Source: an uncultured Gammaproteobacteria bacterium
GTDB taxonomy: Bacteria > Patescibacteriota > Patescibacteriia > Magasanikbacterales > JBBTXJ01
Assembly: GCA_964610305.1 (NCBI GenBank)
Contig: CAZSVL010000002.1
Location: 40,522 to 104,521 of the forward strand
DNA: 64,000 bases
Direction: 5' to 3'
Of this stretch, positions 8,011 to 36,734 are shown one piece after another (position 1 is the first letter of the stretch; each line of letters starts with the position of its first letter). The position numbers and the translations under genes were made by a program. The notes under the pieces were generated by a model, which was not told the DNA's origin, did not search any database, and saw only the letters and a program-made list of their open reading frames with translations.

Positions 8011-8013
8011 TTT

Positions 8014-8122: not shown

Positions 8123-8131
8123 AAAAACAAC

Positions 8132-8160
8132 TTGACATTTTGGCCAAAATGTGCTATTAT
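8132..8160 (+). promoter_or_regulatory. sigma70-type promoter TTGACA-17-TGcTATTAT, with a 12-bp palindrome TTTTGGCCAAAA in the spacer
   Basis: Perfect -35, 17-nt spacer, extended -10. The TSS would lie about 255 nt upstream of ATG 8422. Confidence 0.65.
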
Positions 8161-8421
8161 ATGTAGCTACAAAACGTCTAATGCAGAACAAGTAAGATAT
8201 AGTTGCTGCGGAGAAAAAGGCAGTTTTGGAGTAGTATTGCTAGGAGGAAACGTATAGAGCAAGACAAGTAAGAAATAGTTGTTGCGATAGATACGAGAGA
8301 AACTAAGCAATATCGGTAGTTTTCTGCGCGCTACCTGTTTGGCAAGGTGTTGCCCAAACAGGTGGAAGCGCAGAGGTGCTCGCCATAACAATGTCCATAA
8401 AGCGCAGGAAGGAGAAAAACC

Positions 8422-9345: not shown

Positions 9346-9497
9346 AAAGTAAGGGTAATGGGTACTGTCACGCTGTGGCGGTACCCCTCTTTACACCGCA
9401 GCCAAGGTTTGGCTTCGGTGAGCAGAGCAGGAGGAGAGCACTTTGAATTAAGCTATAGCCACAGGGTTTGCGCCCTGCAATCCGAAAGGAGTTTGAC

Positions 9498-10112: not shown

Positions 10113-10117
10113 TCCGT

Positions 10118-10146
10118 GTGGTGAAGTGATCTTCACCCCTTTTAAG
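10118..10146 (+). terminator. putative intrinsic terminator
   Basis: GGTGAAG-TGAT-CTTCACC hairpin followed by CCTTTTAAG, a weak U tract. Confidence 0.4.
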
Positions 10147-10382
10147 CACATATTACTATTCATGGGCAGTAGTATATGCTTACAAGCGGACGACCACGCC
10201 GTTCTGCGTGTGTGCGAGGTATGCAACCTTCCGGTTGCATTGAGCATGGGCCTCACACCACGTAGAACGGCTTGGTCGACGCATGAGCGTAAATTAGGCC
10301 TTTACAAAACAAAGAAGACAAGTAAGCAAGAAACCGTTTCTTGGTGCGCCGAGGAAAGCGTATCAACATGCAAGGAGTTAAC

Positions 10383-12239
10383 ATGCGAAAGCTTTTTGTT
10401 CTACTGAGCGCCTGTATTTTCAGCATTGCCTGCGAGGGTGGGTGCGGCGATAACGCCGTTCCAGGAGGAGACTACGCGATCGCTGAAGGTGAGGGAGAAG
10501 GCGAAGCCGTTGCGGAGCCCGAGCCCGATCCAGAGCCTGAGTGCGATGAGAGTACGGCGTGCGATGAAGGTTTCAGTTGCGTCTCTGGCGAGTGCCGAGA
10601 AGTAGTTGAGGTTCCGGTAAAGCCTGAGTGTACTGACGATGATCCCTGCGATGAGGGCTTCCGCTGCGAGCGGGGCCTGTGCATTGAAGAGGTTGAGCCA
10701 GAGCCACTCGGCTGCACTTCTAACGCGGATTGCCCCAATCCGGCACAGTGCGATAGGGAGTCCGGTCTGTGTGTGGAGTACCGCATTCCGGATCCGGTTG
10801 AGCCGCCGTGCCGCGGCGTGGTGAGCTGCCCGTGTTACGATAACGGAACGTGTGACGACGGCGCGCTGTGCGTGGAGTCTGACAGCTCGGATATGTGTTA
10901 CCCCGATTCTGACAACGATGGCGTTGTTGATGAAGAGGATAACTGTCCGGCGGATGCAAACGGTCCGGCTGATGTTTCCAATCAGGTGGATCTGGATGGA
11001 GACGGCGCTGGCGATGCGTGTGATGAAGACGTGGACGGGGACGATGTTCCCAATGACGTTGACACGTGTCCGCGTACGCATAACCGGGATAACGATCCTG
11101 GCGCGTGCGCTCCGGAGCCTAACTGTCGGCAGAGCGATCAGTGTAATGATGGAAACGCGTGCACGGCAGATGTCTGTACGCCGCAGGGTACCTGTGAGAA
11201 TCGCCCCGTCAATTGTGACGATGGCGTGGATTGCACGGTTGATACCTGCATTCCGGCACTCGGTTGCTCTCATGAGGAGTCGGACGATCTGTGTGGTGAT
11301 GAGCTCTCGTGTTTCTCTTTTGGAGATGAGAGCGTCTGGCTGGATTTCTTTGGTGATCAGCTTGACCTTGAGTCTGGGTGCCAGCAGTGTGCCCCTGGCT
11401 TCCTTGGTAACGAGGACCAGTGTGACGACGGGGATCTGTGTACCCGAGGATCGTGCACGGATGAAATGACCTGCGAGCAGGAGCCTTTCTGCCATGAGAA
11501 TGAGCAGTGCCTGGTTTTCGGTGAGGAGCCGGACGAGGGTGAGGAAGATGAGCGGTTCGCTGCATGCGGAACGGATCAGGATGGAGACGGCTTCTTCCGT
11601 GGTTTCCGTATTCCGCTAGATGAGCGTGACTGCAATGACTGGAATGAGGACAGTAATCCGGATGCTCCTGAGCTGTGTGATCGAACTGACAACGATTGCG
11701 ATGGCGACATTGACGAGGGGTTTGAGTTTGGTTGGTGCGAGGTGGGCGTTGGTGCCTGCCGCCGTGTTGGTCAGCTCATCTGTAGCCCGGATCGTCGTGG
11801 AACGGAGTGCTCGGTCCGCGCTTGGGATCCTGATCCTGAGGTCTGCGGAGATGACATTGACAACGACTGCGATGGCGCAGTAGATGAGAACTGCAATGAT
11901 GGTGGTGGTCCTGGTCCCAATGGTGGGACGGACACCGTGCGTGTGTGCGTTCCGGCTGATCCGGGAGGCACGTGGCAGAGCAGCATCTTTGGGGATCCGT
12001 CCGGTGGGACGGAAAACCAGAATGCAGGCGCCTGTCGCGATGAGGTGACTCAGGAGCTCAATAGGAGTTTCCTGCGCTTTAACGCACGCAAGCCGAGCGG
12101 TTCGTACTGCTGCGGTTGGCATAACAACCCGGACGATGTTCGGGATACGTGTCAGGGACTGCGCGTTTACGTTGACGGCGTTGCTCAGGAGATTGAGTGC
12201 GTCAACGAGGACGGTCAGTACAACTATCGCCTTGAGTAA
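10383..12239 (+). CDS. Cys-rich secreted/lipoprotein with thrombospondin-type-3-like Ca-binding repeats and Myxococcus-type Cys-rich 'metal-binding' motifs
   Basis: AAGGAG RBS before ATG 10383. Signal MRKLFVLLSACIFSIAC. Contains [56 protein letters not shown] and CGDDIDNDCDGAVDENC. Confidence 0.65.
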   Translation: MRKLFVLLSACIFSIACEGGCGDNAVPGGDYAIAEGEGEGEAVAEPEPDPEPECDESTACDEGFSCVSGECREVVEVPVKPECTDDDPCDEGFRCERGLCIEEVEPEPLGCTSNADCPNPAQCDRESGLCVEYRIPDPVEPPCRGVVSCPCYDNGTCDDGALCVESDSSDMCYPDSDNDGVVDEEDNCPADANGPADVSNQVDLDGDGAGDACDEDVDGDDVPNDVDTCPRTHNRDNDPGACAPEPNCRQSDQCNDGNACTADVCTPQGTCENRPVNCDDGVDCTVDTCIPALGCSHEESDDLCGDELSCFSFGDESVWLDFFGDQLDLESGCQQCAPGFLGNEDQCDDGDLCTRGSCTDEMTCEQEPFCHENEQCLVFGEEPDEGEEDERFAACGTDQDGDGFFRGFRIPLDERDCNDWNEDSNPDAPELCDRTDNDCDGDIDEGFEFGWCEVGVGACRRVGQLICSPDRRGTECSVRAWDPDPEVCGDDIDNDCDGAVDENCNDGGGPGPNGGTDTVRVCVPADPGGTWQSSIFGDPSGGTENQNAGACRDEVTQELNRSFLRFNARKPSGSYCCGWHNNPDDVRDTCQGLRVYVDGVAQEIECVNEDGQYNYRLE

Positions 12240-12253
12240 GGAGAAGTAACACC

Positions 12254-12292
12254 CCGGCCCAGTGGAGTATTCCACTGTGGCCGGTTTTTTTA
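12254..12292 (+). terminator. rho-independent terminator
   Basis: CCGGCCCAGTGGAGTATTCCACTGTGGCCGG hairpin followed by TTTTTTT. Confidence 0.75.
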
Positions 12293-12299
12293 AGTAGAA

Positions 12300-12363
12300 A
12301 GTAACAAGTAACAAAAAACGCACAGTGCGAAAAATTGTTACTTGTTACTTGTTACTTGTTAAT
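12300..12363. repeat. heptamer iteron region: AGTAACA x2, palindrome CGCACAGTGCG, then inverted TGTTACT x4
   Basis: Read directly. Shares the core CAAGTWACAAAAAAC with the 8116 copy. Confidence 0.7.
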
Positions 12364-19817: not shown

Positions 19818-19958
19818 TAGAGCTGGTAACAGGTAATGAGGGGGTGAGTATTAGTACATTTTCTTTTTTCTCTTGTTGCCCGTTATCGGGCACCTGTTTC
19901 CAATAAGTTATCCCCACCCGTTATCAAAAGCCGTGATTAGCTACAGCTATACCCAAGG

Positions 19959-20510
19959 ATGAAAAATAAGGCTCACGATCACTTGCTGCTTTTCAGGCTT
20001 CAGACCAAACAAGATAAACAAGCCTTTACGCAGCTCTACGATAAATACTACGCCGATATTCATCGGTTTGTTTTGTTTAAGGTGCCGACCGCAGAGATAG
20101 CCGACGATATAGTGGCGCAGGTGTTTGAAGGGCTTTGGATGTATGTGGTACAAAGAAAGCGTATCATTCACTTTAGGGCGCTGATGTATCGCATAGCAAG
20201 AAATAGCGTTGCTGAGCATTATCGCAGGGAAGGTAAAACTATGGATGTAGCCATAGAGTACGTGGAATTTGATGTAGCGCAGGATAATGACGGGTTGCTG
20301 GGAGTAGCGCGAGAAGATTTGTTGGCCGCGTTTGTGCAGCTTACCGAGGATCAAGCGGAGCTCATACAACTAAGATATATAGAAGGATTGCCCATAAAGG
20401 TGGTGGCAGAAGTAGTGGGAAAGAGCCGTGGCGCGGTGAGTGTTAGCTTGGGGAGGGCGCGGGCTAGTCTCAAACGCATTTTGGACGCAGATGTCCACAA
20501 GAAAAAATAA
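19959..20510 (+). CDS. ECF-type RNA polymerase sigma factor (sigma-70 regions 2 and 4)
   Basis: Region 2 (FTQLYDKYYADIHRFVLFKV...) and region 4 HTH (GLPIKVVAEVVGKSRGAVSVSLGRAR). Confidence 0.75.
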   Translation: MKNKAHDHLLLFRLQTKQDKQAFTQLYDKYYADIHRFVLFKVPTAEIADDIVAQVFEGLWMYVVQRKRIIHFRALMYRIARNSVAEHYRREGKTMDVAIEYVEFDVAQDNDGLLGVAREDLLAAFVQLTEDQAELIQLRYIEGLPIKVVAEVVGKSRGAVSVSLGRARASLKRILDADVHKKK

Positions 20511-20531: not shown

Positions 20532-21539
20532 ATGGCGATTAGCCAAAAACAATTAAAGGATTCTCTTGCTGCATTGGGCAGTGATTTTTCTGCAGTTGAT
20601 GAAAAGAGAAGTAAGCAAACGCGAGAGCGTGTGTTGGCTTTTATGGATAACAATCCTATTGCCACTGCGCCAAGCGCATACGAAAGATTGAGATTGGCAG
20701 GAAAGTATATAATGCCGTCAGGCGTCTGGCATTATGCCTTGCAGCCTATAATGGTGGTGGTGCTTGCCTTTACGCTGGTTACCGGCGGTTGGGTGACATC
20801 GGTATCTGCCGCTAGTGGGAGTCTGCCAGGAGATGCGCTTTATACGGTAAAATTGGTTTCGGAAAAAACGCAGCTGCAACTTGCATACTGGTCTGATGAT
20901 CCGCTGGTGGTAACAGGGCTGCAGGTATCTTTTGCAAAAAGAAGGATAGATGAAATAAAAGCGGTGAGCGAGCTCTCGCCGGGAGACAAGGAGGAGCGAA
21001 TAGACAAAGCAGTGAGAGGTTTTAAAAAAGGAATCGCGGCAGTGCGCGAATCATTAGAGACAGCGGCCGATAATAAGCCTGAGCAGGTTGCGGCGATCGC
21101 CAGAAAAATACAGGATCAGGGCACTGATTTGGTAGAAGCCATAGAGCAGGCGGAACAAGCGTTGCCTCAAGATGTGGCTCAAGAGCTTGCCAGTGCAAAA
21201 GAAGTTGTGGAAGATGCAACGGATCAGGCGGTAGAGGTTATTGTGGAGAGTCGGCAACAGGGAGATCAGTTGGTTTCTTCAGACGATATAGCCAGTGTAA
21301 TTGTTGGAAAGCTGGATCGCGCTACGGTAAGCGCAGAGCCAAAAGAAGCTCTCTTGAGCGAGAAAGTTGTGCAAAAGCATCTAAAAGACGGAGAATTTGA
21401 GCAAGCGCTGGACGAGGTAAAACGCATGCGCGCTTTGGTAAAAGAGCAAACTGCGCAACAAGAAGAGCAGGAGCCAAGCTTGCCAGGTGTGCTTATAAGG
21501 GTGATAGAGAACGTAACAAGCACTATAATAGGCGAATAA
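20532..21539 (+). CDS. putative anti-sigma factor (single-pass membrane protein with acidic coiled-coil extracytoplasmic domain)
   Basis: Immediately downstream of the ECF sigma. Cytoplasmic N-terminus, one TM (IMVVVLAFTLVTGGW), then LYTVKL... Confidence 0.5.
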   Translation: MAISQKQLKDSLAALGSDFSAVDEKRSKQTRERVLAFMDNNPIATAPSAYERLRLAGKYIMPSGVWHYALQPIMVVVLAFTLVTGGWVTSVSAASGSLPGDALYTVKLVSEKTQLQLAYWSDDPLVVTGLQVSFAKRRIDEIKAVSELSPGDKEERIDKAVRGFKKGIAAVRESLETAADNKPEQVAAIARKIQDQGTDLVEAIEQAEQALPQDVAQELASAKEVVEDATDQAVEVIVESRQQGDQLVSSDDIASVIVGKLDRATVSAEPKEALLSEKVVQKHLKDGEFEQALDEVKRMRALVKEQTAQQEEQEPSLPGVLIRVIENVTSTIIGE

Positions 21540-21561
21540 CCATACGTTTAGTTAATTATTA

Positions 21562-21735
21562 TTAATCATTTCTCGTCCCTTGTGGGGAGGATTCAGCCGA
21601 TTGGCGGGCTGTATCCTCCTCTGATAAGGGGAGTAAGGAAAAGTAGTTGTGCATTAAGGTCGAGCTTCCATAAGGGAGTGTGCACGGCATTGTAACTGAT
21701 CTTGGTTGCGAGAAATGATCATTGCCAAGATCGGT
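21562..21735 (+). promoter_or_regulatory. structured 5' leader with long-range and local alternative pairings
   Basis: TCATTTCTCG (21566-75) pairs with CGAGAAATGA (21709-18). The latter also sits in the loop of a local hairpin GATCTTGG..CCAAGATC. Internal hairpin GGAGGATTCAGCC..GGCTGTATCCTCC. Confidence 0.35.
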
Positions 21736-21758
21736 ATCTAAAAAAGTCTAAATAACTT

Positions 21759-24700
21759 ATGACTACAGCAATAGCATATTCTAGAAAAGCATTTACGGGT
21801 GTTGTTGTTGCGTTGACGGTACTTTGGTCAATTGGTGCGGCCGCACTGATTTCTCCACTAGTAGCACAAAGCGCAGTCGCTCTAGCAGATCTCTCAGACG
21901 GAGATTTGATCATGACTGACGGCGCTGCAGCAGGGGCTACGGTATACGTGCACAACGACGGTAAAAAATACCCATTCCCTAACGCCAAGATCTACGCATC
22001 ATGGTACGGGGACGACTTTTCAAGCGTGATGCGCATTTCTGCGGAAGACATGGGATCCCTTGCATGGGGCTCCAACATGCTCTACCGCCCAGGCTCACGA
22101 TTGATTAAAGTTCCAGACGATCCAAAGGTGTACGCTGTTTTGCCAGGAGGCACAGTAGCGTGGGTCAAGGATGAAGCAACAGCACAGAAGTTTTACGGAG
22201 ACGCATGGGCAGGTCGTGTAGACGACTTGTTGGCATCTCTATTTGTAGCTGACTACACCAATGATCCAAACATGGATCTAACCGCTGATTCAAACTACCC
22301 TGACGGTACACTTATTAAAGTAGATGATGGCGAAGTAGCTGCATCTGCTTTGATGTACTACTACATTGACGGTGGTATGAAGCGCGCAGTGGGAGACGAC
22401 GCAATGGGACAGTTCAACTTGGACTACGCCATTGAAGTTTCCTCTGACGACGCAGCAGCATTTGACGACGGCGACGCTATGGGATCAGGAGAATTCCTTA
22501 ACCCAGTAGCCGTACAGGAAGGTACAACCACTCCTGGAGCAGACGCACCAGACGAGGTGGTAGCAGACGGAGACCTTTCCTTTAGTCTAGCCGCAGACAG
22601 CCCAACTGCTCGTCTTCTTGACGGGACAGGACTCAACGCAGTGTTGAAGGTGGCTGTAAGTGGTGAGGGTAACATCGACGAGCTAACCTTTAAGAAGGTT
22701 GGAACAACCGCTAACACCAACATTACTGGTATGCGCGTTGTTGACAGTTCTGGCGCACGTCTTGGTAACGTAGTTTCTTCAATCAATGAGGATGACACGG
22801 TTACCTTTACAGGACTTGACCACGACGTTGATGGAAGCGACTCACTTGAATTGCAAGTGGATCTAAACACCTCAGCAGGCGCTTCTGACGCACGCTTTGA
22901 GTTGACTGGTGTTGACTCTGGCGCAAGCGTATCAGGACTTCCTGTTGCAGGATTCTTGCTAGACGTTAAAGACGGTTCAACTGTTGTAACCACGGTCACC
23001 TTTGACCTTGATGGTCCAGCGGATAACTCCAGTGTTCAGCTTGGTAATGAGATTGAAATATTCAACTTCACACTTCGCGACACCGGAAGTAAAGAAAAGT
23101 CAACTTTTGACGGTATAACTCTTTACAACAACGGTTCTGTTACTGATGAAGACGTAGAGGACTACAAGCTTGTAGCTCCAAACGGCGACATCTTGGCAAC
23201 CGTACAGCAAGACGGCAAGTGGGTAGTATTTGACGGCTTGGACTACGAGCTGATCAAGGGTGCTACCAAGTCATTTAAGATCAAGGCTACACCTAAGACA
23301 GGTGCAACCAGGACTATTGACTTGCAGCTCCAAAATGACTACGACTTGAAAGTAATGGGCAATACTTCTGCTCACTACATCCTAGCTACCGCTGACGGTA
23401 GCGGAACTAACGACTCAACCTTCCCTGTAGGTGACGCTTCTGGCTACACCGACATGACTTTGGCTTCAGGTTCTCTAACCTGGAACAAGTCTGGAGAGAA
23501 CCCAACCTCTAACTACGCCGTAGGAGAGGCTGACGTAATCTTGGGAAGCTTTGACGTTAAAGCAACTGGTGAAGATATTGAAATCAGAAAAGTAAGCTTT
23601 GCCGTTCTTGAAAGCACTTCTGGTTCAACTTCAACTTCACTTGACGGAAGCGTCTTTATTAAGGCTGACGGCCAGACACTCTACAGCGCAGCATTTGCAC
23701 GTAGCATGTTTACCGGAACCAACACAGACGTAACTGAGTCAAGTAAGTCACTAAGCACCTTCCTAACCGTTCCTGCGGGAGAAACCAAACGTATTGACAT
23801 TGTTGGTACTATTGGATCCGCTGCAGCTTCAACGGACAGCTACGGTGCCGTGTTTAATGTTGCTCAGAACAAGCGCCTAACTACGGGCGACTTGCAGACT
23901 CCAACAGCTAGCATTGTTAACGCAGCAGTACGCTCTGTGAAAGCAGCAGCACTGACGGTTAACAACATTACCATGGCCGCTTCTGGAACCTACAAGATTG
24001 TTGCAGGAACCAACGGCGCGCTTGTTGGTAAGTATGTGCTTGACGCCAGCTCTGGTGGTGAGGACGTACGCGTTAACAGCATTGTAGTAAGCCAGGGTAA
24101 CGGTGGTTCCGCCGCAAGCGTAACTGACTGGAGCAACTGGCGCCTCTACAGAGTTGAAGCTGATGGATCAGAGACTGCTCTGGACACCAGCAACGATACT
24201 AACACGGGTGCTGCTAACATGACCTTTACCTTGATCACTCCTGAAGTGATTGGTAAGTCAGACGTAGACGGAGTTACCTACCACTTGCGTGCTAACCTTG
24301 CTTCCGCCGCTGGCGCAAGCGAGACCGCCGTATTTGTTGTGGGTAATGAAGGAAGCGCAGCTGTGGGAGATGTTACTGGAAACTCAGTGACGGAGAGCGT
24401 ACTTAATGGTACTTCAACGGGAAGCACCTCACTTGGAAGCACGGTAATTATTACCGCTTCTGGTGGAGCAATTAAGATTGCTGTTGATTCCGCAAACGCA
24501 CCGGTGAAGAACTCTCTGGTTAACATTGGTACTACCAATTACAACCTGGGTGCCTTTACTATCAAGGCAGAAGATGAAGATCAGAAAGTTACTGACCTTG
24601 AGGTGAGCTTGTTTGGAACAGCAAGTCTAAACGATGTTAGAAACGTCCGCCTATACTTGGATGACGCTTCAACACCACTTGCTCAGGTAACACAGCTAAC

Positions 24701-25529
24701 CACGGGTGGAGACAATGCTGCTACCGGATATCACACATGGACTTCTGCTAGCGAGTTGTTCAGAATTGAAGCTGGACAGACACGCCGCGTGAAATTCCTT
24801 GCAGACATTGCAGGAGCTGGTACTGCTAAGCTTGGTAATGATGTTCGCCTTGAGATCCGCGACGCAAGTCACGTATCCTCAACCGGTGTCAGCACCAACA
24901 CAGCATCAACCAAGACCGTGCTTAACACCAACTCAATCACTCACACCATTCAGCCATTTACCGTAACGGTAGCAGAGGCAAGCCCTGCATATCCTGCTTC
25001 TAACTTGGAGAAGGACGTGTCAACGGGATCCCTCTTGGCGCAGTTTAAGATCACTAACTCTGGTTCTGCTACAATCACTACCACGCAGTTTAAGATCTTT
25101 AACAACGGTGCATGTACGTTTGATTCAGACGGTGCAACCACCTGTAACTCTACCGGTGTTCAGTACTCACTGAAGACTTCAGCTGAGAACGCAAACTCCA
25201 CAACCAACTTGGTATCTGGAGAGGACACTGAAGAGAGCTCTGGTGTAATTACCTTCTCTGGTGGAGGACTTGCATCATCAGCTAACATTGTAATTGCCGC
25301 AGGACGCTACAGAACCTTTGGTGTGTATGTGTCTGGTACTAACGATGGATTTGCTAAGGGTGCTAGCTGGCAGCTCTCTGTTGCAACTGAAGGTGATATG
25401 ACCTTTAGCGTGCAAGATGAGAACTTGGGTTATGACGGTAACGTTGACGGTAATCAGGACGACTCTAACACGGGTCTAAAGATGACTGGTCAGCCTAGCT
25501 TGCCATCTGTCACAGACAGCGTAACCTAA
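21759..25529 (+). CDS. giant secreted surface protein (1256 aa; acidic, S/T/G/D/V-rich tandem beta-sandwich repeats), putative S-layer or adhesin
   Basis: Signal peptide (VVVALTVLWSIGAAALISPLVAQSAVA), repetitive Ig-like composition, strong terminator after the stop. Confidence 0.65.
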   Translation: MTTAIAYSRKAFTGVVVALTVLWSIGAAALISPLVAQSAVALADLSDGDLIMTDGAAAGATVYVHNDGKKYPFPNAKIYASWYGDDFSSVMRISAEDMGSLAWGSNMLYRPGSRLIKVPDDPKVYAVLPGGTVAWVKDEATAQKFYGDAWAGRVDDLLASLFVADYTNDPNMDLTADSNYPDGTLIKVDDGEVAASALMYYYIDGGMKRAVGDDAMGQFNLDYAIEVSSDDAAAFDDGDAMGSGEFLNPVAVQEGTTTPGADAPDEVVADGDLSFSLAADSPTARLLDGTGLNAVLKVAVSGEGNIDELTFKKVGTTANTNITGMRVVDSSGARLGNVVSSINEDDTVTFTGLDHDVDGSDSLELQVDLNTSAGASDARFELTGVDSGASVSGLPVAGFLLDVKDGSTVVTTVTFDLDGPADNSSVQLGNEIEIFNFTLRDTGSKEKSTFDGITLYNNGSVTDEDVEDYKLVAPNGDILATVQQDGKWVVFDGLDYELIKGATKSFKIKATPKTGATRTIDLQLQNDYDLKVMGNTSAHYILATADGSGTNDSTFPVGDASGYTDMTLASGSLTWNKSGENPTSNYAVGEADVILGSFDVKATGEDIEIRKVSFAVLESTSGSTSTSLDGSVFIKADGQTLYSAAFARSMFTGTNTDVTESSKSLSTFLTVPAGETKRIDIVGTIGSAAASTDSYGAVFNVAQNKRLTTGDLQTPTASIVNAAVRSVKAAALTVNNITMAASGTYKIVAGTNGALVGKYVLDASSGGEDVRVNSIVVSQGNGGSAASVTDWSNWRLYRVEADGSETALDTSNDTNTGAANMTFTLITPEVIGKSDVDGVTYHLRANLASAAGASETAVFVVGNEGSAAVGDVTGNSVTESVLNGTSTGSTSLGSTVIITASGGAIKIAVDSANAPVKNSLVNIGTTNYNLGAFTIKAEDEDQKVTDLEVSLFGTASLNDVRNVRLYLDDASTPLAQVTQLTTGGDNAATGYHTWTSASELFRIEAGQTRRVKFLADIAGAGTAKLGNDVRLEIRDASHVSSTGVSTNTASTKTVLNTNSITHTIQPFTVTVAEASPAYPASNLEKDVSTGSLLAQFKITNSGSATITTTQFKIFNNGACTFDSDGATTCNSTGVQYSLKTSAENANSTTNLVSGEDTEESSGVITFSGGGLASSANIVIAAGRYRTFGVYVSGTNDGFAKGASWQLSVATEGDMTFSVQDENLGYDGNVDGNQDDSNTGLKMTGQPSLPSVTDSVT

Positions 25530-25566: not shown

Positions 25567-25596
25567 AAAGCCCCCACACGGGGGCTTTTGTTTTTA
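25567..25596 (+). terminator. rho-independent terminator
   Basis: GCCCCC-ACAC-GGGGGC followed by TTTTGTTTTT. Confidence 0.8.
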
Positions 25597-25800: not shown

Positions 25801-25856
25801 AAGGGGCTCCTTGTAGTATGGGAGTAGTTCTTAAACAAATAAAAAAGGAGAGAACC

Positions 25857-27998
25857 ATGAAGACGCCCCTATTGGGTATCGCGGTGCTCTTGAGCGCAAG
25901 CGGATGTTTGCAGTTTGAAGACAGGGCTTTTGTGTGCGAGAGTGATGATGACTGCGCGCAGGGAGTATGCGCCAGAGCATCACTGGATGACACGCAGACC
26001 TACTGCTTGGTTAACCCACCTGATTTATCTGAAAGCCAAGAAGGTGAAGGGGAGAAGCCTTCTGAGGGCGAAGGTGATAATCCAGAGCCTCAAGAGGGTG
26101 AAGGCGAGACGCCAAACGGTGAATCTGGAGGCGAGGGTGAGGGTGAGGAGATTGACCCGCCGGATGGTGAAGGAGAGGGCGAGCACGTCATTGGCGAAGG
26201 TGAAGGCGAGCTTGATTCTGGCGAAGGTGAGGGAGAAGATTCGTCTGGAGAGGGAGAAGGCGAGGTAATTGATCCCGGCGAAGGTGAAGGAGAGTTTGAT
26301 CTCGGCGAGGGAGAAGGCGAAGGAGAGGGCGAGGGCGAGCCTGATTGCCTTTTGGATGATCAGTGTATTGCTCATGATCCTTGTACCATAGGCCGTTGTC
26401 TTGCGGGAGAGTGTCGTATTGTTTTAGCAGATGATAACACTCCGTGCAGCGATGACAATGCCTGCACAGCGGCAGACACGTGTCAGGCTGGCAATTGCAT
26501 GCCGGGCGATGCTCTGGATTGTAGTGATTTTGAAGATCAGTGCAATGAGGGAGCGTGCGATCCTGATTCAGAGCAGGAGAATCCCTGCTTTAGCGAGCCG
26601 CGTCTCTCAGACGAACCGCTCGCCTGTCAGAGTGGGCTTTTTTGCGCGGTGGACGGCGTTTGCCTTGATGGTATTTGTGAGGAGCAGCAAAGAGATTGTT
26701 CTGAGTTTAATGGAGCGTGCGCAACGGGCGTGTGCTCTGAAGATCTAGGGCGCTGCCTTGCAGATGGCGCTCCTCATGAGGAAGATTTATGTGATTTGGA
26801 GCAGCCGGCGCAGTGTCATCATGGTGCATGTCAAAATGGGGCCTGCGCGGTAGTCCGGGACCAGAACGGTAGTCAGTGCAGCGATGGAATGTTGTGCACG
26901 GGCGCTGATAGTTGCGAGGACGGCGTTTGCGAAGGGATTGCCATCTCATGCGGTCATCTAAGTGATCAGTGCAATGAGGGAGTTTGCAACTCTGATACGG
27001 GCGCGTGTGAAGCGCGCGCCGTGGATGATGAGACTCAGTGCAATGACGGACTTTTTTGCACGGTGCTGGACCAGTGCAGCGGCGGCATCTGCTCAGGCGC
27101 TGCGCGCGATTGTAGCGTCGCAGATGAGATCTGCTCTATTGGCGTTTGTTCTGAGGAGCAGTCCGAGTGTGTTGCGGATGACGCTTTAGCCAATGCTACG
27201 CCGTGCGACGATCTGGATGTGTGCACGGGCGAGGGAAGCTGCCAAGATGGCGCTTGTCAGCCCGGAGAGGCGCTTAATTGCGACCATGCGGCTGATCAGT
27301 GCAATGCGGCGGTTTGCAATCCTGAATCGCTAGAGGATGATCCGTGTGAAGCTGTTCCTGTAGATGATGACACGCCTTGTACTGACGGCGATGATCTGTG
27401 CACGGTTGAAGACAGCTGCCAGCAAGGTGTCTGCGAAAGCGGAGACGCTCCTGACCGGGATGAAGATGAGCACATAGATGACCGGTGTGGTGGCGACGAC
27501 TGTGATGATGGCGATCAGACCGTTTATCCCGATGCTCCGGAGCTTTGCGACGGAGTTGCTAATAGCTGTGGTGGCCAGGTAGACGTGTTTTATGAGGTGC
27601 CGACACCTTCATGGTCTGAGTGGGGTCCTGTGGATGGTTTTGCGCGTGTTTGGACAGAGGCTGCCCGCGCTGGAAAGGTGTGTGTAGAGACAATTCTAGA
27701 GAATGCACATGCACGCTCTTCTCAAATTGGATTGCCAGAGAATTGTTCTCTTGAGATTTGCGTTGAAATTCAAAACGGTGATGAGGGAGCTGCCATACGT
27801 TTTGATGTTGTTGACTATGGACAAGTATGGCTTCTGGAAGAAGAGGATGGGGAGTTTTGTCAAAGTCTTCCGGACGATTTGCCGAATCCGCTAGAAGTGG
27901 AAATAATTTCGGTTGGTAATGGTGAACGATATATGTGCAACTTCAAAATCCGCTCCACGCTCTCTGCAGAAGGTGAGGGAGAGGGTGAAGGTCTGTAA
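25857..27998 (+). CDS. Cys-rich GE-repeat secreted lipoprotein (more than 15 ~40-aa Cys modules; C-terminal [10 protein letters not shown] motif)
   Basis: AAGGAG RBS before the ATG. Signal ...LLSASGC. Long (GEGE)n acidic linker. Repeated C-x-D-x-N-x-C-T-x-x-D-x-C-x-x-G-x-C modules. Confidence 0.7.
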
Positions 27999-28004
27999 AG
28001 TAAT

Positions 28005-28035
28005 GAGGTTACCTCACGCGAGGTAGCCTTTTTTA
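28005..28035 (+). terminator. rho-independent terminator
   Basis: GGTTACCTC-ACGC-GAGGTAGCC (one G-U pair) followed by TTTTTT. Confidence 0.75.
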
Positions 28036-28042
28036 ATACTCC

Positions 28043-28071
28043 TTGACAAAAATGAAAAAGAGTGGTACGGT
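28043..28071 (+). promoter_or_regulatory. promoter TTGACA-17-TGgTACGGT
   Basis: Perfect -35 and extended -10 TG. The -10 hexamer is weak. Confidence 0.45.
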
Positions 28072-28126
28072 TTGGTCAGGGGAAAAGCAAAAAAACGCTA
28101 AAACAAAAGAAAAAAAAGGAGGGGTC

Positions 28127-29719
28127 ATGCGAGTACTCACGGGGACCCTGGCAGCTTTGCTGCTGTGTTCAACCAATGCATTAGCTCAGGATGATCAAGA
28201 TGAGTCCTCAGAGTCACTACAAGAGAGTGAAAGCTCTGACGATGAGCCGCAGAAGATTGGTGTGTTGGTTTTGCCAGCCAACAAGAAGCTTAGAGCCGTG
28301 GCAATGGATCTAGAAGAGCTTTTAGCCATGTCATTTAGCGATAAGACGCCTTTTGCTGTCCTAGATGGTGAACAATTGCGCAAAATTGTTGCGCCAGAGC
28401 AGCCGTTTAAAAAGCAAAGCAAGGCCGTAGAGCAGTGCCTAAAGGATCCAGGCTGCATTGCGCCGCTCATGGTCCAAGAAGACATGATTTTCTGGACCGT
28501 AAGCTACGTGGGTAAGAGTGGTAAAGGTTTGCGTCTGCGGCTCAACCTGTTTGATCTGGATGGTAACGTGATTGCTACCCATGATTCTGGGCGCGTAACG
28601 CAAGAGCAGCTTTACGAGGGCACCTTTTTGACAGCAGAAAAGCTGATTGGAAAGCACCGTGGAACGCTCATTGTAAAGACCCCTAGCGATGCGCATGTCA
28701 TCATCAATGATGATAAGCATCCCAGTGGCGAGCATACGTTGTCATTTCTTGAGCCCGGGCCGTATAAGATTGTGGTAAGCAGCAAAGGGAAGAGACCCTT
28801 TGAGCAAACCGTAGAGCTGAGGGCTTCGGCCCTAGAGACAGTAGAGGTTAAAGCTACCGATCTTAAACCTTGGGTAAGTAAGGCCGTGGCTCAGAAACGC
28901 GATCAAGGCATTGCTTATTTCCGCAAGGACCTCTTTGAGATGGCGGCAAGTACGCTTGCAGAGGCGCGAGCCCTGCCGGGCGGGGATCAGGATAGTAAGT
29001 TGCTTTTCTATCTGGCGCGTAGCTACGTAGATCTCAATGAGCTTGCAAAAGCGTTTGAGTCCGCAGAAGCGGCTACCAAAACGCATGATCCAGAAGGTAA
29101 GTTTGGAAAGCGTGCTGCAGAGTTGTTGAAAAATCTGCGCAAATCATACGGAAGCGTCATCTTTAAGCGTTTGGCTAGCTCCACTGTAAAACAGGGCTAC
29201 ATCTATCTTGATGACATTGCCGGGCTCATTGGAAAGGAAAAGAAAGAGCAGTTTAGAAAACTGCGGAATCGTCTGAAGAGCCAAGCGGTAGATTTGAGCA
29301 CAAGTGGGTACGTATACTTTTTGCCCTACGGCCAGTATCGCGCCAATGGGGTTCCCTTTACGGTAGAGCAGGGAAGTCTGCCAGAGGTAGAGATTCTGCT
29401 AGAGGCCACGCCTCGTGAGCAGGAGTCAAAGGGTCTTTCTGTGCCGGTCATGGTAGCCTCTGGGGCTGGCGCTGCGCTGCTCACGGCATTTGGCATGCAT
29501 TTGATGGCTGTTTCAGAAGCTGAGGATTATGAAACAGCAGGAAATCAAAAGAAGGCTTTTGAGGCGCGCGATTGTGCAGAGTTTTATCAGAAAACAGCCT
29601 TTGTTGGCTACGGTTTAGCCGCCGTCGCTGGAGGTGTTGCTGGATGGCTCTGGTGGCAGGACCAAAGCAGAAGCGTTGTTGCGCTTCCTGGTCAGCTGAT
29701 TTTGCAGGGATCATTTTAG
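28127..29719 (+). CDS. secreted PEGA-domain protein with TPR-like helical region and C-terminal TM segment
   Basis: AAAGGAGGGG RBS before the ATG. Signal ...STNALAQ. PEGA-like block GTLIVKTPSDAHVIINDD...YKIVVSSKGKRPFEQTVEL. Confidence 0.6.
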   Translation: MRVLTGTLAALLLCSTNALAQDDQDESSESLQESESSDDEPQKIGVLVLPANKKLRAVAMDLEELLAMSFSDKTPFAVLDGEQLRKIVAPEQPFKKQSKAVEQCLKDPGCIAPLMVQEDMIFWTVSYVGKSGKGLRLRLNLFDLDGNVIATHDSGRVTQEQLYEGTFLTAEKLIGKHRGTLIVKTPSDAHVIINDDKHPSGEHTLSFLEPGPYKIVVSSKGKRPFEQTVELRASALETVEVKATDLKPWVSKAVAQKRDQGIAYFRKDLFEMAASTLAEARALPGGDQDSKLLFYLARSYVDLNELAKAFESAEAATKTHDPEGKFGKRAAELLKNLRKSYGSVIFKRLASSTVKQGYIYLDDIAGLIGKEKKEQFRKLRNRLKSQAVDLSTSGYVYFLPYGQYRANGVPFTVEQGSLPEVEILLEATPREQESKGLSVPVMVASGAGAALLTAFGMHLMAVSEAEDYETAGNQKKAFEARDCAEFYQKTAFVGYGLAAVAGGVAGWLWWQDQSRSVVALPGQLILQGSF

Positions 29720-29776
29720 TAAAGTAGTCGTCTGTTTTGTGCAGGCGGCTTTTTGTTTTGGTCGAGCTTTGCTACT

Positions 29777-32038
29777 ATGGGAGCCATGAGTAGAAATCTA
29801 CCAATAAAACAGCGGATAGTACAAGCTTTACTGCTCCTTGTGTTGGCTACGCCACTTGTCATGTTGCCAAGTACATTTTATTTCCCTTTTTCTACCACAA
29901 AGGCTTGGTTTTTTAGAGCTGTCATTCTTGCGACCCTTTTTGCTTGTGTATTTTTTTCTAAAGACTTGCGCGCCATCAAGCCAAAAAATAATCTGGTGGC
30001 ATTTGCCGTTTTATTTTTTTTGTTAATTTACGCTGTAACCACCGCTACGAGCATAGATGTGCATAGATCTTTCTGGGGGAATTACGAGAGGATGATGGGT
30101 CTTGTTACTATGATATATTTTGTGGTTTATTTCTTTTTATTGAGAACCTTCTTTTTTGATAAACAATCGTGGCGCTGGTTTTGGGGTATTTTTGGTGGTG
30201 TTGGTATTGTGGTTTTTTTGCTTGGTTTGTATCAAAGCTACAATCCTGACTTTTTGATTGGTAGGCAATTTGGTGGAAACCACGGATACCGTGAAAACAT
30301 TACGCTCGGCAATCCGCTTTATGTTGGGCAATATAGCGTGTATCTCCTTTTTTTGGGCTTGTATTGGCTTAAAGATACATTTGATAGATGGCGCATAGAT
30401 AAATCACGTGTTAAAGAGCTGTGGTTTTGGGGGGCCGCAGTGTTCTCTAGTCTTGGTTTGTTATATTTGTCTCAAACAAGAAGTTCGTTTGTTGGACTAG
30501 TAATGGCGGTTTTTTGTGGCTGCGCTTTGATGGCTTTGCTTCATCAAAAAAAGAGGGATAGGCGCATCTATTTGATTGCTTTTGTTCTTATGAGTTTGGT
30601 GGCTGCTTTTATTTTAAGTCCTCTGAGTCAATCGGTGACCGCTCATCTGGGAAAAGTAAATCGGTTTACCGACTTAAATTTTTTGTCCTCTTCAAACATC
30701 AATCGTATACATGCATGGAAGACGGCCGCAACAGCATGGAAAGACCGCGCTTTTCTAGGTTGGGGTCCTGGCACTTTTTCTATTGCTTATAATCAGTATT
30801 TTGATAGTAGGCGATTAATTAAACGAGACTTTACCGACACGTGGTTTGACAGCTCTCATAATCAATACCTAGACGCGCTATCAGAGCAAGGTGTTTTGGG
30901 GTTTGTTGCGCTGCTTTTTTTGTATGCAAGTGTGCTGATAGGACTTATGGTTGCTTGCCGAAGAGGACATATCAAGCTCATTGATATGATGATGCTTGTG
31001 GGACTGTTGATAACGGTGGGTGTTACTAATATATTTGTTTTTGAACAAGTTACTTCATATTTCAGTCTTTTTTCTTTTTTGGCATTTGTTAGTTTTATTA
31101 TAGATGGACAAAAAAATGACTTCGTTCTTAATCGTTCCTCAGTGCCGATCCGCGGGGCACTTCTTTACGGATCAGTTATAATTTTGTCAGTGGTCTCGTT
31201 TTACACCGTGATAATACCTGCGCGTGCAAACGCTACGGTACTCTCCTCACTTCTGCAAGTGGTACGCACAGGATCTGTTGAAGACCTCTTGCTCTCAGCG
31301 GAGCAGGCAACGCGTAGCGGCTTTGCTCACCATGAGCATAACTATTCAAAATTAGCAGAGCTTTTACTCAAGACGGCCTACATACCGCAGGAGCATCTGC
31401 AGCCCATGATTTCGCTTTACCGCTTCACTATTGAAGGGTTGCAAGAGCAAATGAAAAAACACCCAAGAGATGTATCTTTGCCTATGCTGATAGCGCCCGT
31501 CTTGCATGATGCTTATAGGGTGGCGCCGGCTCTATTTCCGCGTGGCAGAGAGCGCGGCGATCAATATTTTGTTAAGGCTTCTGAGCTTTCTCCCAATCGG
31601 CAAGAGATATTGGCCTATTGGGGTAATCAGATTATGCAGTCAGGCAATTTAAAGGATGCGCGGGAGCCGTATGTAAGAGCGCTGGCGATGGCTCCAAGCT
31701 CTCCAATTTCATTTAATTTGTATGCGGATTATGTAATGGCAATAGAAGAAAATCCCAGCAAGGCACTTCATTTATATGAGTGGGGGATTAAAGAACGTTT
31801 GGTAGACATAAACAGTAAACGCTTGGTGGACATGGTGCGAGCTGTTCAGAGCGCTCATGGTAAGCAGCAGGCTTTAGAGCGGCTTGATGTGTTGATCTAT
31901 TGCTTTACACATGGTGGTGATAGGTCGGACTGTGGCGTTTATGGGCGCACAGACCCTGTTTATGGGCGCATAGATCCGATTCCTTCTTTTATGGGCCCGC
32001 TTTACGACCTAAGAGAAGAATTAGTGAGCAGCACTTGA
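29777..32038 (+). CDS. O-antigen-ligase-like membrane protein with C-terminal TPR-like domain (paralog 1 of 3 tandem)
   Basis: Wzy_C-type core (LSQTRSSFVGLVMAV) plus a helical C-terminal domain. The start is ambiguous (29753-29786). Confidence 0.6.
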   Translation: MGAMSRNLPIKQRIVQALLLLVLATPLVMLPSTFYFPFSTTKAWFFRAVILATLFACVFFSKDLRAIKPKNNLVAFAVLFFLLIYAVTTATSIDVHRSFWGNYERMMGLVTMIYFVVYFFLLRTFFFDKQSWRWFWGIFGGVGIVVFLLGLYQSYNPDFLIGRQFGGNHGYRENITLGNPLYVGQYSVYLLFLGLYWLKDTFDRWRIDKSRVKELWFWGAAVFSSLGLLYLSQTRSSFVGLVMAVFCGCALMALLHQKKRDRRIYLIAFVLMSLVAAFILSPLSQSVTAHLGKVNRFTDLNFLSSSNINRIHAWKTAATAWKDRAFLGWGPGTFSIAYNQYFDSRRLIKRDFTDTWFDSSHNQYLDALSEQGVLGFVALLFLYASVLIGLMVACRRGHIKLIDMMMLVGLLITVGVTNIFVFEQVTSYFSLFSFLAFVSFIIDGQKNDFVLNRSSVPIRGALLYGSVIILSVVSFYTVIIPARANATVLSSLLQVVRTGSVEDLLLSAEQATRSGFAHHEHNYSKLAELLLKTAYIPQEHLQPMISLYRFTIEGLQEQMKKHPRDVSLPMLIAPVLHDAYRVAPALFPRGRERGDQYFVKASELSPNRQEILAYWGNQIMQSGNLKDAREPYVRALAMAPSSPISFNLYADYVMAIEENPSKALHLYEWGIKERLVDINSKRLVDMVRAVQSAHGKQQALERLDVLIYCFTHGGDRSDCGVYGRTDPVYGRIDPIPSFMGPLYDLREELVSST

Positions 32039-32079
32039 TATTTTTGTAGGGGCGCGCTACTATAGCAGCCACTGCTTTT

Positions 32080-34392
32080 ATGACAATTTTGCCACAACGT
32101 CATGTAAAAAAGTTGGTGCGTCTTGCTCAGGCGCTTGTTTTGTTGTCCATGACTATGGTTTTATTTGTAGCTCTTGAGCAGGTTGTATTTCCTTTTGTGG
32201 TCACAAAAATTTGGATTTTTCAGGCTTTTGTTGCGGCGGCTTTTGGTCTTTATTTGATAATTCTTTTATTTGATAGGAAATATTTGCCAAAAATCAGCGT
32301 ACTTTCTGGGGCGATAGCCTTTTTTTTGGTGGCAACGCTTATTAGTTCCTTTTCTGGCGTTGATTCTACCAGATCGCTCTGGTCTGTGCATGAGCGAATG
32401 CTGGGCTGGTTTAATGTAGCGCATTTTGCGGCTTTTTACGTTTTGATTATTGGTTTGTTTAGAACAAAAAAGGAGCGCATGTTTTTGGTGATGTGGTTTT
32501 TGCTTTTGAGCATCCCCAACAGCATAACGGTTATGATTCAAAAGCGTGTTCCCGGATTTTTGCTGAGCGATTCTAATCGTCCTGTGGGGCTTTTGGGGAA
32601 CGCCATTTACGTTTCTTTTTTTGGGGTTTATGTGATGTCATTTGCGCTGCTGGTATCACGTTTTTGTGTTGAAAAATTTAAAGCAAGTAAGCAGTACGCA
32701 ACGCGGCTTATTACTTATGGTTGGTTTAGTGGGATCGTGGTTTGTGCAGTAGCCGCTCTTTTGGCGGGGATAGCAACTGGTTTGTCAAACAGCAGAAGTG
32801 CGATGCTTGGCTTGATGGCCATGCTTATTTGGGCGAGCATAGTTGTGGCGATTGCAGCCTCTGCAAGGCGTGTAAGAAAAAAAGCCATCATGTTTTTGTT
32901 GGTAGTAGCGATGGGTGTAAGTGTTGTGGTGATTGGCAACAAGAGTCCACTGCTAGAAAAGGCTCCGCTTGTGGGAAGATTTGCAAACTTTTCGCTTATG
33001 AGCGGCTCAAATGATAATCGTTTATTTGCGTGGGAGGTGGGGTTGAAAGGATTTGCCGAAAGACCATGGTTTGGCTGGGGGATCTACAACTATAGTTCTG
33101 TTTTTAACAAATACTATGAGGGTCGTCGGCTTCAATCAGACAATTATGCAGAAACCTGGTTTGATAATGCTCACAATTTTTATATTGATACGCTTGTAAC
33201 GGGCGGTATTATTGGTTTGTTGGGTTATTTAAGCATGTATGTTGCGGCACTTTATTTGTGCTATTGGGGGTGGAAGAAAAATCGCCTTTCTTTTTTTGAA
33301 ACAACGCTGCTTAGTTCTTTGGTTGTGTTTCATGCGGTGCAGAATATTTTTGTCTTTGAACACATAGTTTCATATTTGAGTTTCTTTTTGCTGCTTGCTT
33401 TTATAGCAGGTGGTACCGGAAAAGTGCGGAATTATAGGAGAGGAGAAATCAATGTGTTTGTGGTTGTTCTAGCCGCTGTGTTGGTTGTGATTAGTACAGG
33501 TTTTGTTATATACAGGGCTAATATTGTCCAGTATCAAGCAAATAGGTATATGTATACTGGTTTGCATACGCTCTATGCTACCGGCAAAGCTGGCTTGTGG
33601 TTTTCCGATTTCAATAAGGCTTTGGCGCTTCCTACGCCTCACAGAGCACATATTATTGAAGAGATGGCTCGTTCTATTTTAGGTGCCAATATTCCACCAG
33701 AATTGGTTAATGATAGGCTCAGAGAAATGGGGGGATACATCATCAAGGAATTGGAAAATAATACTGCAGAACATGAGTATGATGTGATTAATCGCATGAT
33801 GCTTGCTGAGATGTGGTTTTTTATGGGCCGACTATTCCCTAATGAATATCCGGATGCCTTTGAGTTGGGAGATCAATATTTTACGGCAGCTATAGCTCAG
33901 TCACCACAGCGTCAACAGCTTTTGATTAATTGGGCCAGTCATCTTGCGCGCATTGGTATGTGGGATAAAAGCAGAGATGTTATGCTTCGTGCTCGTTCAT
34001 TTTCTCCCAAGGTTGGTGTAGTTGCCGAGGCGTATCAGGCCTATTTAGAAAGAACAAACCAAAAAATGACGGCATTAAGACACAAAGCTGTGCTTTTGGA
34101 TTTTCACCGAGGATCGTTTAAGGAGTACGAAGAGAATGCCATTGATTATCATAATTTTGTAGATAAAGAGAAAGGTGCTCGCAGGTTGGCGAATTTTATT
34201 GCGTGTACAGATCAGATTGTTCCCGCACAGTGTCCACCAGTTCAGCGCCGCGAGGTAATGGTAATTGTTCCTCGTGTTGAAACATTTGATATTGTAATTA
34301 ATTACTATAAGCAGTTAGATCCAGAGAATCTAGAGCCATTCCAGAGTGCTAAGCTGTTTTATTATCCAGCAGAGGAGTCTCATGAATCATAA
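32080..34392 (+). CDS. O-antigen-ligase-like membrane protein with C-terminal helical domain (paralog 2)
   Basis: Same architecture (SNSRSAMLGLMAM), ending ...ETWFDNAHNFYIDTL. Confidence 0.6.
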   Translation: MTILPQRHVKKLVRLAQALVLLSMTMVLFVALEQVVFPFVVTKIWIFQAFVAAAFGLYLIILLFDRKYLPKISVLSGAIAFFLVATLISSFSGVDSTRSLWSVHERMLGWFNVAHFAAFYVLIIGLFRTKKERMFLVMWFLLLSIPNSITVMIQKRVPGFLLSDSNRPVGLLGNAIYVSFFGVYVMSFALLVSRFCVEKFKASKQYATRLITYGWFSGIVVCAVAALLAGIATGLSNSRSAMLGLMAMLIWASIVVAIAASARRVRKKAIMFLLVVAMGVSVVVIGNKSPLLEKAPLVGRFANFSLMSGSNDNRLFAWEVGLKGFAERPWFGWGIYNYSSVFNKYYEGRRLQSDNYAETWFDNAHNFYIDTLVTGGIIGLLGYLSMYVAALYLCYWGWKKNRLSFFETTLLSSLVVFHAVQNIFVFEHIVSYLSFFLLLAFIAGGTGKVRNYRRGEINVFVVVLAAVLVVISTGFVIYRANIVQYQANRYMYTGLHTLYATGKAGLWFSDFNKALALPTPHRAHIIEEMARSILGANIPPELVNDRLREMGGYIIKELENNTAEHEYDVINRMMLAEMWFFMGRLFPNEYPDAFELGDQYFTAAIAQSPQRQQLLINWASHLARIGMWDKSRDVMLRARSFSPKVGVVAEAYQAYLERTNQKMTALRHKAVLLDFHRGSFKEYEENAIDYHNFVDKEKGARRLANFIACTDQIVPAQCPPVQRREVMVIVPRVETFDIVINYYKQLDPENLEPFQSAKLFYYPAEESHES

Positions 34393-36703: not shown

Positions 36704-36734
36704 TTTTTTAGGGTGGTTTTGTTAGGGTTGGTCC

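Follow-up and report, generated by a model that had tools for sequence, protein, structure and literature searches.

A hairpin with an invariant unpaired core in the leader of a Patescibacteria envelope-protein gene as a candidate cis-acting RNA motif

Analyses of a 64,000-nucleotide (nt) stretch of DNA from an uncultured bacterium of the Patescibacteriota (contig CAZSVL010000002.1, positions 40,522 to 104,521; hereafter the window) identified a compact RNA hairpin, hairpin C, at 21646-21688 of the + strand. It lies in a 219-nt leader (21540-21758, + strand, as defined by the map of open reading frames (ORFs)) that fills the gap between a gene for a DUF5667 membrane protein and a gene for a predicted envelope protein of 1256 amino acids (aa). 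The motif is conserved in well over a hundred loci of the candidate phyla radiation (CPR) and is an apparently undescribed RNA hairpin. We interpret hairpin C as a new cis-acting leader RNA motif whose likeliest function would be to offer a recognition site to a conserved trans-acting factor governing envelope-protein expression, and we give this account, its structure and function taken jointly, about an even chance of being correct.

Hairpin C consists of an outer stem (21646-54 paired with 21680-88), a bulge on the 5' side (UAAGGUCGA, 21655-63) and an inner hairpin (21664-79, GCUUCC AUAA GGGAGU). The single-stranded bulge contains an invariant core, AAGGUCGA (21656-21663, + strand), that is conserved in the homologous leaders. 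In the predicted ensemble the pair probabilities of the hairpin were at least 0.97 and the bulge was 99.8% unpaired; the z-score of the hairpin was -3.8 on the + strand versus -0.47 on the opposite strand. The motif is followed immediately by a conserved single-stranded tail, CAUUGU (21688-21693, + strand), which is invariant as CAYUGU in the five closest relatives. More distant leaders, including most of those of the Uhrbacteria type, have YUAYUCW in its place (e.g., L085 5370-5390, L088 and L128). An earlier reading of the leader from its letters (the sequence-only reading) had noticed the 3' arm of this element, as one of two copies of a duplicated ATAAGGGAG motif, and had not singled out the hairpin around AAGGUCGA. 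Exact ATAAGGGAG occurs once only (21670-78), the other copy being a near-copy with an extra G (ATAAGGGGAG, 21624-33).

The conservation of the motif was evident among the closest orthologues, comprising four loci at 57-60% protein identity and two from genome contigs, one of which is identical to L001. These loci keep the gene order, and their leaders (173-219 nt) have in common a long hairpin (hairpin A, below) and three invariant elements (AAGGUCGAG, CAU and CAYUGU), with an A-rich tract preceding the AUG. Around AAGGUCGAG, the sequence of the outer stem has been fully replaced between species, yet the stem is paired in each (GUGCA/UGCAC, GUGAAGA/UCUUCAC, GUGCUAGC/GCAAGCAC and GCUUGCGGU/ACCGCAGC). 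The spacing from CAU to CAYUGU in the orthologues is 16, 16, 15 and 15 nt, and the length of the inner hairpin varies across the family. We consider the leader not to be coding because these differences in spacing are not multiples of three; short ORFs that could represent a leader peptide or upstream ORF are present, and their frames are not kept between orthologues.

To place the motif in the wider family, an alignment of the 1256-aa protein family was compared with one genome per species. More than 529 relatives were found in Patescibacteria genomes, many of them in Candidatus Uhrbacteria; 79 loci were returned, and the start codons of the homologous genes were placed by tblastn, with 82 unique genome loci considered. 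In 55 of the 82 loci, an exact AAGGTCGA was present in the 300 nt that precede the start codon, against a chance expectation of ~0.005 per locus, and a further 20 loci had a single mismatch to it (AAGGUCGG, AAGGCCGA, AAGGUCGU or AAAGUCGA). The strict architecture of the motif was found in 28 of 56 real sequences versus 10 of 560 in which the flanks had been shuffled. Minimum free energy (MFE) folds of more than 60 leaders, in which only the 8-mer core was forced to be unpaired, had an outer stem of 5-11 base pairs (bp) or longer, a 5' bulge of 9-13 nt with the core as its last nucleotides, an inner hairpin whose length was mostly 14-24 nt, and 0-3 unpaired nt on the 3' side (usually none) followed by the 3' arm of the outer stem. 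The motif consensus is N1-4 [A/C]AAGGUCG[A>G>U], and the alignment columns of the core (13-19) are 95-100% invariant. The inner loop is variable in the family alignment. In the inner helix, the 5' strand keeps to pyrimidines and the 3' strand to purines, the pairs varying almost only between C-G and U-A.

Two covariance models of the hairpin were used, R2, for which 13 real hairpins sharing one geometry (A8) were padded with a few N, and R3, which was rebuilt from the R2 matches. All 46 matches of R2 at E <= 0.04 were in leaders. When both strands of 1.05 Mb were searched, R3 produced 70 matches at E <= 1; 68 of them preceded the homologous gene in the sense orientation and two were strays outside leaders (E = 0.55 and 0.61). 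Hairpin C (21646-21688; 22.1 bits, E = 0.0044) was the sole R3 match within the 64-kb window. Three other approaches were dropped: a model made from loop-trimmed pseudo-seeds (R1), which had 5 matches at E <= 1 and matched falsely at E <= 10; a permissive descriptor scan that tolerated one mismatch in the core and produced too many false positives; and a MAFFT-only alignment of the hairpins, as their stems share no sequence. As an additional observation, two leaders contain two tandem AAAGGUCGA cores (L014, at ~5768-5802 and 5873; L016, at 5788 and 5848).

Covariance analysis of orthologous leaders, which the sequence-only reading had suggested as its check, bore out the conservation of hairpin C, with double changes at 13 of 13 modelled pairs. 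In the alignment of the 46 matches (A10), 91.3% of cells were paired, compared with 53.9% when shuffled and 35-48% when the pairing partners were slid, and there were 234 double changes versus 77 (0/500 shuffles as high). The corresponding values for the 70 matches (A11) were 89.5%, 51.6% and 39-47%, with 363 double changes versus 114 (0/500). Because G-U cells outnumber A-C cells by 51 to 7 in the motif alignment, the structure can be assigned to the sense RNA.

An independent replication was obtained from 80 loci on metagenome contigs that were anchored on the DUF5667 gene, using an alignment of 12 closer DUF5667 sequences (a first DUF5667 alignment was discarded as too divergent). R3 identified 58 leader matches in these loci, all on the + strand and downstream of DUF5667. 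Of the 57 loci that reach the envelope-protein gene, 54 have the motif, which ends ~29-122 nt before the estimated start, and the loci with neither motif nor envelope gene are contigs that end too early. The replicate alignment was 89.0% paired versus 55.9% when shuffled, with 248 double changes versus 73 (0/500) and 53 further pair types versus 43.1 in shuffles (0/500 as high). Across all three alignments, 33-52% of cells were paired when the partners were slid.

Hairpin C is part of a leader that is highly structured along its length, as had been proposed from the sequence. The MFE of 21540-21775 on the + strand is -79.5 kcal/mol (z = -4.76), a value equalled by none of 200 shuffles, and the z-score of the - strand is -2.77. 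Three hairpins make up the fold: A (21576-21631), C (21646-21688) and D (21695-21735), with z-scores of -5.2, -3.8 and -4.8, respectively, on the + strand. Hairpin A is long and imperfect (-35.3 kcal/mol), with a purine-rich 5' arm (GGGGAGGAU) and a pyrimidine-rich 3' arm (AUCCUCCUC). It takes in an internal repeat, 21586-98/21607-19, which had been described as a 13-bp hairpin and is present, its arms being complementary at only 12 of 13 positions; the ATAAGGGGAG copy forms the 3' base of hairpin A. RNAalifold of six close relatives showed that hairpin A is kept, with compensatory changes at several pairs. Hairpin D has a stem of ~11-12 bp (21695-21706/21724-21735, + strand) and a loop of ~17-19 nt. 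Its sequence is not kept and MAFFT could not align it among close relatives, yet every close relative has a hairpin there, as judged by single-sequence folds of L001, L002, L003 and L023. An A-rich tract, not a U-rich one, comes after hairpin D, and the start region of the 1256-aa gene is A/U-rich and partly open (mean unpaired probability 0.58). The homologous intergenic regions, typically 220-285 nt, are also highly structured in predicted folds.

The absence of an obvious Shine-Dalgarno (SD) sequence before the 1256-aa gene, which had been taken to suggest translational control by the leader, was correctly noted and is not special to this gene. Among the 43 ORFs of the window, only ~9 have even a weak SD-like 4-mer at no more than 22 nt from the start, and a good one is present in 2-3. 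Based on these counts, translation initiation in this organism seems to be largely SD-independent.

Many loci of the Uhrbacteria type have a leader RNA of ~250 nt with additional conserved modules. Upstream is a module of the form CCUGACGAGCGGGAGAAC-[variable hairpin]-CUUUCGCUCGUG, which is preceded by a CAGGGCG...CGUCCUG hairpin (L049 5760-5860, L070 4385-4480, L045, L067 and L028); this module looks like another covarying RNA structure, of which hairpin A of the window may be the counterpart. Comparison by eye also suggests that hairpin A corresponds to the GAGCGGGAG...CUUUCGCUC module found in other leaders of the Uhrbacteria type. The presence of CUGACGAG in the upstream module raised the candidate of a hammerhead ribozyme, which was rejected as the required GAAA is missing (by eye) and Rfam was negative. 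Further modules include a GGAUUCUCACGGAUCC hairpin and, in many members, a small hairpin that ends 4-8 nt before the AUG and hides AAGG(N)U (gcccgcaagggcuacccuAUG; L049 5965-5985, L070, L035 and L045). The latter hairpin is missing from the subfamily of the window.

The motif occupies a fixed place in a cassette whose order is ECF (extracytoplasmic function) sigma factor, DUF5667 membrane protein, motif and large envelope protein. In the window, the ECF-type sigma factor gene (19959-20510, + strand) was identified by Pfam Sigma70_r2/r4/ECF and by TIGR02937 (77.6 bits versus a cut-off of 42.9). The second gene (20532-21539, + strand; Pfam PF18915), which begins 21 nt after the sigma gene, encodes the DUF5667 membrane protein, a putative anti-sigma factor. 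By tblastn of the genome loci, an upstream sigma factor was found in 73 loci and DUF5667 in 59. The envelope gene is present in 57 of the 80 DUF5667-anchored metagenome loci; the rest end early, and none shows another gene after DUF5667. In two loci (L034 and L036), the N-terminal region of the protein is shared only in part, and neither cassette nor motif is present. A gene for a conserved HTH_17 protein of ~100 aa is found near the cassette on the other strand.

The gene downstream of the motif (21759-25529, + strand, from the ORF map) encodes a protein with an N-terminal membrane helix and EccB-like repeats, followed by a long stretch without a recognised family; searches of Pfam, NCBIfam and PDB sequences produced no match to it. 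An AlphaFold2 model of residues 1-280 (window 21759-22598), with a predicted local distance difference test (pLDDT) score of 79.9, has a membrane helix and small alpha/beta repeats. Foldseek matched these residues to the periplasmic repeats of EccB of type VII secretion at E = 4e-6, with a template modelling (TM) score of only ~0.2. It is a reasonable inference from these predictions that the 1256-aa protein is an envelope or surface protein. We also observed that the public annotation begins the gene of the orthologue P0003 at an ATG that lies within hairpin D (L002 4001), and homology puts the start 39 nt downstream (4040).

The probable transcription unit was assessed from sequence. In 20 loci an ECF promoter of the form GTAAC-N15-18-CGTN (TGTAAC-N16-CGTC(T)) ends exactly 8 nt before the sigma ATG, a position that implies a nearly leaderless, autoregulated sigma mRNA. 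The version in the window (~19915-19945) is degenerate, GTTTC...CCGTT, ~35 nt upstream of the sigma ATG. A simple scan listed no terminator-like site on the + strand of the leader (21540-21758). A canonical intrinsic terminator (AAAAGCCCCC ACAC GGGGGCTTTTGTTTTT, 25567-25596, + strand) was read from the sequence after the envelope-protein gene; the pattern scan did not report it. Its presence indicates that such terminators are in use in this organism. Since the ECF promoter is found only upstream of sigma, no leader terminator is listed and a terminator follows the envelope gene, the sigma, DUF5667 and envelope genes can probably be co-transcribed, in which case the leader would be an intercistronic RNA. 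Two candidate promoters within or beside the leader were rejected. A sigma-70-like site at 21501-21529 is a product of codon choice in the last part of the DUF5667 gene that orthologues do not retain, and the ECF-sigma promoter produced 2 chance-type matches in the leaders of the large gene versus 23 at sigma genes.

Having located the motif ~30-130 nt upstream of the start codon in this fixed cassette, we propose that it is a site for a trans-acting factor because the bulge is single-stranded and is invariant across lineages whose proteins are only 25-30% identical. The bulge would be held single-stranded between the two helices and thereby offered to a conserved factor, which may be a protein or a part of the translation or RNA-decay machinery. 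Such a factor would set the translation or the lifetime of the envelope-protein message, and the output of envelope protein could thereby be uncoupled from the regulators encoded upstream.

Several observations weigh against this proposal. The conserved neighbours (the sigma factor, the membrane protein, the HTH_17 protein and glycosyltransferases) include no obvious RNA binder, and simple binding of a protein to the bulge explains neither the pyrimidine/purine asymmetry of the inner helix nor the conserved 3' tail. The window copy itself is a weak member of the family, with a bulge of only 9 nt, a U for A before the core and a score of 22 bits. The paired-cell percentages given above are inflated, as the alignments were fitted to the model, and the slid-partner and flank-shuffle controls offset this only in part.

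Two known protein-binding or structural RNA elements were considered for the motif and rejected. A CsrA/RsmA site, with GGA in a hairpin loop, does not fit, as the residue after GG is U in 63 of 65 sequences and C in 2, and the core is in a bulge. A kink-turn, with a 3-nt bulge and tandem G-A pairs, does not fit a bulge of 9-13 nt and a non-bulged strand that lacks a conserved GA at the junction.

An unlikely explanation is that hairpin C is a processing or stability element, whereby the transcript would be cut at or beside the motif, for example by ribonuclease P (RNase P) acting on a minimal transfer RNA (tRNA)-like helix or by another endonuclease, and the stable hairpin, now at the 5' end created by the cut, would then protect a distal, highly expressed message. 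The likely operon layout, with the ECF promoter found only before sigma and a terminator recognised only after the large gene, is consistent with such a role, as are the great stability of the hairpin (seen in its pair probabilities) and the finding that most copies have no unpaired 3'-strand nt between the helices, making coaxial stacking possible. AGGUC plus the hairpin may be likened to the variable loop and T arm of the general tRNA consensus, with the outer helix in the place of an acceptor stem; the fetched loci contained a single tRNA. ARAGORN (applied to the window and the leaders) and the Rfam tRNA model do not recognise the motif, whose inner loop is variable and never T-loop-like, whose outer stem of 5-11 bp or more is not fixed at 7, and which has no conserved 3' CCA or first base pair.

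A small-ligand riboswitch is a distinctly improbable reading of the same hairpin. Here, the bulge would create a compact pocket by docking against the purine-rich strand of the inner helix, and the ligand would alter access to the initiation region. About 9 invariant unpaired nt beside a helix that varies only between C-G and U-A is a pattern seen with loop-groove contacts, many members have the small hairpin that hides an AAGG-type element right before the AUG, and in some copies the motif ends just ~36-44 nt before the start codon. Against this, the motif is small for an aptamer, the sigma/anti-sigma and envelope context points to no metabolite, and neither a conserved expression platform nor a terminator accompanies it. 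Pairing of a UAYUCAU tail with the start-codon region, attractive in some Uhrbacteria leaders, was not significant in a permutation test (p = 0.70). A search for a pseudoknot partner of the bulge found no enriched complementary k-mer in the leaders, and L056 and L077, which differ at core position 8, show no compensating change between them. Nor was a known riboswitch recovered from Rfam. The only match in the whole window was a transfer-messenger RNA (tmRNA) gene at 3098-3498 (- strand; RF00023, 81 bits, full length; not reported by ARAGORN), 21300-22000 had only chance-level matches of 13-18 bits at E <= 10, eleven homologous loci had no match at the gathering threshold, and the L049 leader had none at E <= 5. 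A broader proposal is that the hairpin represents a new functional RNA class specific to Patescibacteria, either a punctuation signal for RNase P or a tRNA enzyme that cuts and stabilises the message, or a very small riboswitch; we hold it to be doubtful.

The model of the sequence-only reading, in which a switch between a distal and a local pairing acts as a riboswitch or attenuator that controls translation, we regard as very improbable. The complementarity on which it was built is real: TCATTTCTCG (21566-75) can pair with CGAGAAATGA (21709-18), and the match is perfect over 11 nt (5' arm AUCAUUUCUCG, 21565-21575; 3' arm CGAGAAAUGAU, 21709-21719; both + strand). An 11-bp inverted repeat around the central hairpin is unusual for the sequence of the window, as 0 of 200 shuffles reached it (mean longest 6.2), and in a nested model the swap of hairpin D for the long helix costs just 3.5 kcal/mol relative to the MFE fold. 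The local GATCTTGG..CCAAGATC hairpin also exists, as an 11-nt, 91% inverted repeat (21695-705/21725-35). The two pairings are not mutually exclusive as claimed, as CGAGAAATGAT is in the 19-nt loop of hairpin D and not in its stem, so there is no base overlap and the distal pairing would form a pseudoknot with D; in the nested model the equilibrium probability of the long helix is ~0.35%. The helix is absent from 46 other unique homologous leaders, whose motif-spanning inverted repeats are 4-8 bp in 44 cases, 9 bp in one and 10 bp in one (chance level), and RNAalifold of the six closest relatives found no long-range helix. The sequence-only reading had named a lack of conservation or covariation of its pairings in orthologous regions as what would refute it, and the distal pairing shows just that. 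The start region is in neither arm of the distal or local pairing, and, with no terminator-like site listed on the + strand of the leader, an attenuator is not supported. Both the distal pairing of 11 bp and the near-duplicate AUAAGGG(G)AG are particular to the lineage and do not represent the conserved mechanism.

Most remote is an element acting at the level of DNA, either an invertible segment bounded by the 11-bp repeats (phase variation), whose opposite orientation would be recognised by the junction of ATCATTTCTCG to CAACCAAGATC, or AAGGTCGA as a protein-binding site or promoter element: perfect inverted repeats do bound a 133-bp segment upstream of a surface-protein gene and a conserved HTH_17 gene is nearby, but the repeats are found only in the window, the ~100-aa HTH_17 protein is no recombinase and none was identified among the conserved neighbours, the sole other assembly of the sequence (identical) has the same orientation, and a metagenome scan for the left flank gave no match, while the core is flanked by covarying stems with the G-U excess of an RNA on one strand, its distance to any second element varies, and the leaders lack the ECF promoter motif of the cassette.

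Elsewhere in the window, the envelope gene is followed on the same strand by a long run of large ORFs (25818-43918, + strand; 558-1068 aa), none of which has the motif. Of the two that were examined, 25818-27998 belongs to no Pfam or NCBIfam family and 28043-29719 has a PEGA domain. Local G+C is 0.53-0.56 at 8000-12000 and 26000-28000 versus ~0.45 elsewhere; at 10341-12323, long ORFs on the two strands overlap each other.

Patescibacteria (the CPR) form a very large, almost uncultivated part of bacterial diversity in which gene regulation is little known. The present analyses define a strictly conserved cassette of ECF sigma factor, DUF5667 membrane protein, structured RNA and large envelope protein; the family of the envelope protein numbers more than 500 relatives in species-level genomes. 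Being compact, strongly covarying and built around an invariant core of 8 nt, the motif is a concrete and cheap experimental target, and its working covariance-model definition would allow a new RNA family to be proposed and these genomes to be annotated. If the motif controls the main envelope protein, it would bear on how epibiotic cells build a surface that is thought to contact their hosts. If it were a tRNA-like punctuation signal or a tiny riboswitch, it would add a post-transcriptional layer to the most conserved envelope cassette of these ultrasmall bacteria. No description of the motif or of the cassette was found in searches of the literature on DUF5667, CPR RNA motifs, and S-layers and sigma factors.

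Comparison with known systems identified several with which hairpin C shares features. The orphan leader motifs of the CMfinder/Breaker type that are catalogued in Rfam likewise have covarying stems around a few invariant unpaired nt, and a fixed position and orientation upstream of one gene family. Unlike these, hairpin C matches none of the 4227 families of Rfam 15 and is confined, as sampled, to Patescibacteria and to one sigma/DUF5667/envelope cassette. Protein-binding operator hairpins, such as those of ribosomal-protein leaders, the threonyl-tRNA synthetase (ThrRS) operator and the phage coat-protein operator, also present a helix broken by conserved unpaired nt, with stem sequences that are free but paired, tens of nt upstream of the start codon. 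In contrast to them, the bulge in hairpin C is long (9-13 nt) and strictly one-sided.

Genes for S-layer and crystal proteins have long structured 5' untranslated regions, including the STAB-SD of Bacillus thuringiensis cryIIIA. These leaders resemble the one studied here in being highly structured, ~100-250 nt long and upstream of a large, presumably abundant envelope protein, and the STAB-SD also has a purine-rich AAAGG far upstream of the start codon. By sequence logic, AAAGG could pair with the CCUUU of the standard 16S 3' end (no 16S gene lies in the window), but the invariant UCGA could not, and SD use is rare here. tRNA-like processing signals are known from RNase P cleavage in bacterial operons, where tRNAs serve as punctuation, and from the tRNA-like domain of tmRNA. 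They share with hairpin C an AGGUC followed by a hairpin whose 3' strand runs unbroken into the outer helix, the order of variable loop, T arm and acceptor stem, and a position between cistrons fits; the motif differs from them in having no T-loop sequence or CCA and an outer stem of variable length. Cis-acting motifs with a defined structure are well established in leaders, and this motif, absent from Rfam, is apparently a new one.

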